Under the pieces are notes generated by a model. It saw nothing but the letters and a program-made list of their open reading frames with translations. It had not been told where the DNA came from and made no database searches. Of a stretch of DNA of 64,000 nucleotides, positions 53,964 to 54,146 are shown piece after piece (position 1 is the stretch's first letter; each line of letters starts with the position of its first letter). The DNA comes from Escherichia coli (GTDB lineage: Bacteria; Pseudomonadota; Gammaproteobacteria; Enterobacterales; Enterobacteriaceae), in the NCBI RefSeq assembly GCF_024700885.2, contig NZ_CP117016.1; one strand, 5' to 3'. The position numbers and the translations under genes are program-made.

Positions 53964-54146
53964 ATGAACATAAACGCAAAAAAATCTTCTTTTACGCCTG
54001 AAGAGTTAACCAGGAAATATCATGAGGAAGCCCCGGTTGATTTAAAAAATAACCATGGCGATAAAATAAATGAGAAGAATAACAATAAACACATTACTTA
54101 CTTTCCCGTTGATGCCATTTTAGATGGGAATAAACATCTGCCATGA
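53964..54146 (+). CDS. hypothetical small hydrophilic protein (60 aa) between chaperone and translocator genes
   Basis: ORF in track only; weak SD, Lys/Asn-rich, no recognisable family; same strand and tight spacing within the operon. Confidence 0.3.
   Translation: MNINAKKSSFTPEELTRKYHEEAPVDLKNNHGDKINEKNNNKHITYFPVDAILDGNKHLP

Follow-up and report, generated by a model that had tools for sequence, protein, structure and literature searches.

What is a 60-codon ORF doing between the chaperone gene and the major translocator gene of an Escherichia coli T3SS locus? The window analyzed here, a stretch of 64,000 nucleotides of contig NZ_CP117016.1, contains the selC-linked eip locus (eicA, eipB, eipC, eipD, eilA, iatC). 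Its eicA-eipB gap measures 247 bp (eicA end 53954, eipB start 54202), of which the ORF occupies 183 bp. A preliminary description of this DNA had reported a 183-bp, 60-codon ORF in that gap, and both its coordinates and its content (53964-54146) hold up in our analysis. The three genes concerned are as follows, in window positions:

53457 to 53954, plus strand: eicA, a class II (SycD/LcrH/SicA-type) T3SS translocator chaperone of 165 aa (Pfam TPR_3, E=2.4e-17; PGAP)
53964 to 54146, plus strand: the ORF, ATG start, 183 bp including the stop, 60 aa, in the same frame as eicA (PGAP hypothetical protein WP_001024422.1)
54202 to 55983, plus strand: eipB, a major translocator of the SctE/SipB/IpaB family (YopB/SseC/SipB-family; Pfam T3SSipB; PGAP annotation)

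The annotated gene order runs tRNA-Sec, setC, yicL, nlpA, yicS, eicA, the hypothetical protein and eipB, followed 3' of eipB by eipC, eipD (an IpaD/SipD-family tip protein), eilA (a HilA-family regulator) and iatC/eaeX (an inverse autotransporter). Based on Pfam matches to TPR_3, T3SSipB/SseC and T3SS_TC and on PGAP product names, this is a translocator operon of the Inv/Mxi-Spa type, with a TPR class II chaperone, SctE, a minor translocator and an IpaD/SipD tip protein in order. The same gene order is found in sicA-sipBCD of Salmonella SPI-1 and ipgC-ipaBCD of Shigella, the Inv/Mxi-Spa operons, although the eip locus, unlike these comparators, lies physically apart from its apparatus genes (ETT2). 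The major translocators of the Inv/Mxi-Spa operons and of eip alike carry a single [P/V]xLxxP motif at residues ~52-71: each of the eight translocators that we examined has exactly one, at residues 52-71, and a motif scan finds that of EipB, the chaperone-binding PMLAPP, at residues 62-67. Publications on this locus give six genes, leaving the small ORF unmentioned (PMC11068852, PMC7058095, PMC4210603). The 804-bp stretch around the ORF is 100% identical to NZ_CP023386.1 (E. coli strain 1190), and 741 of 5426 complete E. coli genomes hold a sequence similar to it. As a side observation, a small internal fragment of a rhuM pseudogene follows tRNA-Sec (selC) at about 48879-49181 (L001 3423-3725, offset 45456); it is a scar left by an island that had inserted at selC, 5' of setC.

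What distinguishes the eip locus from its comparators is the length of the chaperone-translocator spacer. The preliminary description had presented the sicA-sipB and ipgC-ipaB junctions as having no intervening gene, and the records bear this out: ipgC and ipaB on pCP301 are 5 nt apart, Providencia sicA and sctE are 2 nt apart, and the corresponding genes of an E. coli plasmid T3SS overlap by 8 nt. Among chromosomal relatives, the spacing is 14 nt in Pseudogulbenkiania and 34 nt in a metagenomic relative. Inv/Mxi-Spa comparators thus range from overlapping genes to genes 34 nt apart, whereas the eip-type islands have spacers of 247-263 bp, with 247 bp in E. coli, 263 bp in E. albertii and 255 bp in a third island, whose chaperones are 71% (E. 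albertii) and 55% (third island) identical to EicA. Intermediate islands, sought by scanning a genome collection with a chaperone alignment, were not obtained; the scan returned only two loci, Pseudogulbenkiania and an E. coli contig in a "Collinsella" MAG. The latter contig (JAIJJM010000039.1, L019), labeled Collinsella sp., contains the eip locus of E. coli (99% identity), and its label is almost certainly the result of binning contamination.

The ORF product is hydrophilic and Lys/Asn-rich, as first described, with 9 Asn and 8 Lys among its 60 residues. The early impression that it has no recognizable fold also stands, with no Pfam or NCBIfam family matching the 60-mer at E<=1 and no relative among PDB sequences (best E-value 0.29). 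Calling the ORF "unannotatable" was right with regard to function, which is not assignable, but not with regard to annotation, as PGAP annotates it in the source genome under the accession given above, and RefSeq/PGAP records carry it as a hypothetical protein or, in other strains, as a frameshifted pseudogene. A word-indexed search of 5.8 billion proteins found as relatives of the 60-mer only Escherichia alleles at 80-90% identity and truncated variants, and HMMER, run exhaustively on 1.8 billion representatives, returned only the ORF's own alleles and low-complexity matches. Cluster listings hold dozens of alleles named "hypothetical protein" from E. coli and cryptic Escherichia lineages. 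The ORF is an Escherichia-only orphan, outside any described family.

Signals for translation are present at the 5' end of the ORF, the nearest being the following:

53948 to 53955, plus strand: purine-rich GGAGTGAG, overlapping the eicA stop (TGA, 53952-53954), a weak-to-moderate Shine-Dalgarno (SD) for the ORF

The SD (GGAG) is predicted to form an anti-SD duplex with a dG of -6.1 kcal/mol at a spacing of about 11 nt, a value close to that of eipC (-6.3) and attained by 5.7% of random positions. The ATG lies 9 nt past the eicA stop, within reach of coupling to the upstream gene, while 55 nt separate the ORF stop (54144-54146) from the eipB ATG, too many for leader-ORF or uORF coupling to the downstream gene. 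The N-terminus of the product (MNINAKKSSFTPEEL) is rich in Ser, Asn and Lys, which fits a secretion signal without being diagnostic of one. An ORF of at least 60 codons arises in 1.1% of dinucleotide-preserving shuffles of the E. coli gap (P=0.011). No consensus sigma-70 promoter was found on the plus strand between 53964 and 54201, and for a HilA/EilA box the literature yielded no usable consensus. The sole promoter-like match in the spacer is a weak one on the minus strand at 54144-54117 (ATGGCA-16-TAAAAT, 9/12), antisense to the ORF and inside the conserved block described below.

The E. albertii island also has an ORF in its spacer. This 70-codon ORF (L012 6519-6731) starts at a GTG that shares bases with the eicA stop (GTGA), and its end is 54 nt short of eipB, versus 55 nt in E. 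coli; its SD, AAGGAG, has a dG of -8.8 kcal/mol at 7-nt spacing, and an ORF of at least 70 codons appears in 0.5% of shuffles of that spacer (P about 0.005). The two spacers are not alignable as DNA, and their products share no significant similarity by BLASTP or by permissive global alignment, with shuffles as the control where applicable (P 0.14-0.77). An "MN(S)IN" start common to both is anecdotal. Database matches to the E. albertii 70-mer are confined to E. albertii and "Shigella boydii" entries, and its alleles show three nonsynonymous changes and one synonymous change, a diversity insufficient for a selection test. Residues 44-51 of the 70-mer read LIPELIKP, which fits [P/V]xLxxP (PELIKP, 46-51) and resembles LIPELKAP of IpaB; neither the E. 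coli 60-mer nor any of its alleles has the motif. In a separate observation, E. albertii eicA carries an in-frame (ATATGC)n repeat (L012 6126-6143) whose strain-variable copy number alters a YAYAYA stretch, and EicA length varies with it, with called products of 167-174 aa and one locus truncated at 149 aa.

The third eip-like island, present in a few E. coli genomes (L016/L017, GCA_009799345.1 and GCA_910664965.1, 6001-12480), encodes translocators of its own along with a HilA-like regulator, and an invasin-like inverse autotransporter lies upstream. The spacer of this island (255 bp, 25% GC) holds no ORF longer than 30 codons.

Within E. coli, we aligned 64 eicA-ORF-eipB sequences, drawn from complete genomes, from protein-linked contigs and from 52 contigs of metagenomes that an invariant 23-mer retrieved. 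Substitution counts and pi delimit the first of two parts of the spacer:

53964 to 54095, plus strand: codons 1-44, the 5' two-thirds of the ORF, evolving neutrally

Codons 1-44 show 34 nonsynonymous versus 9 synonymous changes in an ORF-unbiased subset, where the neutral expectation is 17-25% synonymous, and the other two frames show the same ratio. Nei-Gojobori pN/pS is about 0.5-1.4 in this part, versus about 0.05-0.1 in eicA, which is under purifying selection, and in eipB. The minimum number of mutations per site at codon positions 1, 2 and 3 is 0.43, 0.39 and 0.30, with no periodicity, versus 0.06, 0.06 and 0.19 in eicA, and pi (0.050) equals the third-position pi of eicA and eipB (0.043-0.062). 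The amino-acid sequence of codons 1-44 therefore shows no purifying selection and evolves neutrally. Hypermutation was considered and rejected, as pairwise divergence and pi in this part match the neutral level of the flanks and do not exceed it. At two second positions, window 53977 (codon 5: Ala, Gly, Val or Glu) and 54058 (codon 32: Gly, Val, Ala or Asp), all four nucleotides occur among E. coli alleles, and six of the multi-allelic sites fall in the 132-nt variable part.

The reading frame itself is also frequently lost in E. coli, chiefly at one homopolymer:

54044 to 54049, plus strand: tract of six A after TTT (A6), which other strains have as A5 or A7, cutting the ORF to 34 or 29 codons

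Tract alleles other than A6 make up 25 of the 64 aligned sequences (A5 in 18, A7 in 7) and were found in 9 of the 29 complete genomes sampled at even spacing. Allele-specific searches place the A5 haplotype in 146 of 733 genomes and the A7 haplotype, together with its intact sibling, in 160 of 733, and overall the frame is broken in about 31% of eip-carrying E. coli genomes, with about 69% of alleles intact. PGAP records "frameshifted" pseudogenes in two such loci (L009 and L073) in which eicA, eipB and eipC are intact, and over the 2.3 kb of eicA plus eipB frameshifts occur only as singletons. Two other 803-nt matches carry their 1-nt deletion in the non-coding gap and not in the tract. In a rare allele (L007), a second deletion of 5 nt restores the frame after the A5 deletion, and a rare nonsense allele of the ORF exists in the database (P0008). 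With 1-2 nonsense changes expected and 0 observed, the deficit is not significant, and so the test for stop-codon avoidance has no power. The ORF thus does not keep its frame across strains and related islands. The preliminary description had proposed frame conservation in related islands as a check and its absence as grounds for refutation, and the outcome is mixed but falls largely on the refuting side: an open frame recurs at the same position in two species, an improbable coincidence, but its sequence is unconserved, it is absent from the third island and it is often lost in E. coli.

A slippery heptamer, U_UUA_AAA, lies in phase at the frameshift-prone tract TTTAAAAAA (window 54041-54049), where a -1 ribosomal slip in the A5 allele would bring back the original downstream frame. 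No stimulatory element or structure for slippage was found there, so that such slippage remains speculation.

The second part of the spacer behaves quite differently from the drifting first part:

54096 to 54201, plus strand: conserved nucleotide block comprising ORF codons 45-60 and the 55-nt untranslated gap, ending in the eipB SD AGGAGG (54190-54195)

This block of 106 nt is at least 99% identical in 686 of 734 genomes (93%); for the first 106 nt of the ORF (53964-54069), the same level of identity is reached in only 23 of 733 (3%). Over 54126-54201, mostly non-coding gap, pi is 0.013, about the level seen at first and second codon positions of eicA and eipB, and low diversity extends into eipB codons 1-46, third positions included. 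The eipB SD is very strong (dG -12.9). In the ORF, the C-terminal 15-16 residues (YFPVDAILDGNKHLP) are invariant in full-length alleles, the most divergent lineage included, and rare nonsynonymous variants exist. Codons 45-60 hold one nonsynonymous change and three synonymous changes, too few to judge selection; that each of the three common substitutions falling in codons 46-60 is synonymous hints only weakly, and post hoc, at constraint on the peptide (P about 0.01-0.03). The simplest account of the conserved ORF C-terminus is that the region upstream of eipB is conserved, and 54096-54201 is probably the eipB leader and translation-initiation region, with a role in eipB expression that we infer from this pattern. 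A second, 24-codon ATG ORF in another frame (MGINICHELNKKELITPDDSLKRR, window 54124-54198) is open in all 23 haplotypes, and its TGA stop falls within the ribosome-binding region of eipB, leaving 3 nt to the ATG of that gene. With no SD of its own (dG +0.6) and nothing corresponding in E. albertii, it is probably incidental.

Taken together, we favor the reading, with a probability of roughly 55%, that the 60-codon ORF is translated where intact but is a dispensable, unconstrained spacer ORF upstream of a conserved eipB leader. The eicA-eipB spacer would then consist of two parts, an unconstrained 5' portion of ~130 nt and a 3' portion of ~105 nt that would act in cis as the eipB leader, with the ORF spanning the drifting part and the constrained one. 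As its ATG lies just past the eicA stop behind a modest SD, ribosomes finishing eicA can re-initiate there, and this is how the ORF would be translated in A6 strains. It may be a relic or by-product of an ancestral small ORF that survives in a different form in E. albertii. The absence of purifying selection, together with loss of the frame without damage to eicA or eipB, points to a dispensable spacer ORF in E. coli. Given this unconstrained drift, and a frame interrupted in roughly one strain in three, the ORF is probably neither a functional gene nor a working T3SS component. The third eip-like island, which keeps its 255-bp spacer without a long ORF, is in line with the favored reading. 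Against it stand the ORFs in E. coli (P=0.011) and E. albertii (P=0.005), both improbable by composition: such ORFs, with like start and end positions in spacers that do not align, argue that long-term selection has kept something open. The strong SD and GTGA stop/start overlap in E. albertii, typical of real coupled genes, also weigh against this reading, as do the all-synonymous common changes in codons 46-60 and the ~69% of alleles that are intact. What weighs most against the favored reading is the positional ORF in E. albertii; the strongest arguments against a functional peptide are the 31% frameshift frequency and an omega of about 1.

The features of the ORF resemble those of two known kinds of gene. 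Like Pseudomonas aeruginosa ExsE, a small T3SS-secreted regulator encoded next to its chaperone, beside exsC, the ORF product is small, hydrophilic and probably disordered and is encoded directly 3' of a T3SS chaperone gene. It has no sequence similarity to ExsE, is not conserved even in its own species and is broken in about 31% of strains. In functional terms, the closest likeness is to the many lineage-specific orphan small ORFs of AT-rich acquired islands, the ORF being limited to one genus, without a domain, evolving at an omega of about 1, often pseudogenized and annotated only ab initio by PGAP. Unlike typical orphan ORFs, it keeps its position in the islands of two species and is plausibly coupled to a conserved gene.

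Among the alternatives, the one that survives best, though we still consider it unlikely, is a genuine, fast-evolving small T3SS accessory protein, coupled to eicA and acting via its C-terminal YFPVDAILDGNKHLP. The product would be a secreted substrate, or a partner or decoy of EicA, with the N-terminal two-thirds serving as a tolerant secretion signal or linker, and A5 and A7 would be loss-of-function variants, as are common for effectors and in decaying ETT2. Positional ORFs in two species with low chance probability, the presence of translation signals, and a C-terminus that is invariant in full-length alleles and whose common changes are synonymous are all consistent with such a protein, and the frame regained after A5 in L007 fits it as well. 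The E. albertii LIPELIKP also fits the class II chaperone-binding motif, of which each of the eight translocators has one, but by our estimate a chance [PV]xLxxP match in a 70-mer of that composition has a probability of a few percent, and the E. coli ORF has no such motif. Other observations likewise argue against an accessory protein: codons 1-44 lack purifying selection, the frame is broken in about 31% of genomes while the neighboring eip genes are strongly constrained, the adjacent non-coding gap is as conserved as the C-terminus, and the products in E. coli and in E. albertii are not significantly similar. In AlphaFold2 models of EicA-(GGGGS)6-ORF chimeras from both species, the TPR domain reached a pLDDT above 90 and the ORF part 29-55, with no ordered or docked peptide, although chimera pLDDT is a weak test of docking for a peptide without alignment depth and with contacts uninspected.

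Somewhat less likely again is that translation of the spacer matters while the peptide does not, with ribosomes shielding the intercistronic RNA from Rho-dependent termination or decay, or feeding eipB, such that openness is selected and the amino-acid sequence drifts. This reading makes neutral amino-acid evolution compatible with ORF retention in E. coli and E. albertii, and it accommodates both the starts placed beside the eicA stop in the two species (9 nt; GTGA overlap) and the unusual spacer itself, which in other Inv/Mxi-Spa-type operons is 0-34 nt. The ORF stop, however, lies 55 nt before eipB, too far for coupling of the classical kind, and the SD of eipB itself is very strong. Alleles whose frameshift cuts the translated stretch in half are common, the third island retains its spacer without a long ORF, and the nonsense deficit (1-2 expected, 0 observed) is not significant.

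More doubtful still is a hitherto unrecognized class of chaperone-coupled, tiny, disordered and fast-diverging peptides encoded by eip islands (60 aa in E. coli, 70 aa in E. albertii) that bind EicA or are secreted by ETT2. E. albertii would use its IpaB-like LIPELxxP motif for this and E. coli its YFPVDAILDGNKHLP tail, and the peptides could act as a decoy or timer, setting the amount of free EicA on hand for translocator loading or for co-activating EivF, an InvF/MxiE-like regulator. Under this proposal, the A5/A6/A7 tract would be an on/off polymorphism.

Least likely is a pure chance ORF in AT-rich non-coding DNA, never translated, which would account for the lack of family, fold or homologue, the neutral evolution, the frequent frameshifts and an SD that is only moderate and at long spacing, but which is at odds with the shuffle result (P 0.011), with the independent positional ORF and strong SD in E. 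albertii (P=0.005) and with a start 9 nt after the stop of a well-translated gene, where some re-initiation is likely. The preliminary description offered a chance ORF, a regulatory peptide and a small secreted substrate as options. Of these, pure chance is unlikely (shuffle P about 0.01; in E. albertii P about 0.005, with a good SD), and nothing but position speaks for a secreted or regulatory product.

Three further explanations were tried and rejected. Aligning the small ORFs with eight translocator N-termini, as expected of a relic of a translocator N-terminus, gave a best P of 0.03-0.04 before multiple-test correction, which is unconvincing. A readthrough fusion with EicA is disfavored: the ORF and eicA share a frame in E. 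coli but are in different frames in E. albertii, and there is no evident SECIS-like hairpin. For a structured RNA or riboswitch, the spacer gave no Rfam match at E<=1, and its folding z-scores were -0.39 and -0.22.

As the ORF is already catalogued in RefSeq, what is new here is its population genetics only, and nothing beyond that is newly established about it. If the favored reading of a dispensable spacer ORF is true, this is a routine case of a RefSeq hypothetical protein or pseudogene that can be down-weighted. For those interested in ETT2 and eip, the eip family differs from SPI-1 and Mxi-Spa in its ~250-bp chaperone-translocator spacer, and the last ~105 nt of this spacer are more conserved than the flanking coding DNA, making them a candidate control region for eipB expression. 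The spacer and its conserved 3' block are a more useful observation than the ORF for ETT2/eip work. Were the accessory-peptide reading true, the ORF would encode a new small partner of a class II chaperone and would bear on the link between chaperone availability and T3SS gene regulation.

Finally, eipB itself is unevenly variable. Its C-terminal 60% (codons 234-593, window 54901-55980) falls into deeply divergent allele groups, with 89-90% versus 96-99% identity overall, a third-position mutation density of 0.47 and many tri-allelic sites near 55578-55793, and the N-terminal third is far more uniform. This pattern of divergence suggests mosaic or recombinant eipB alleles.
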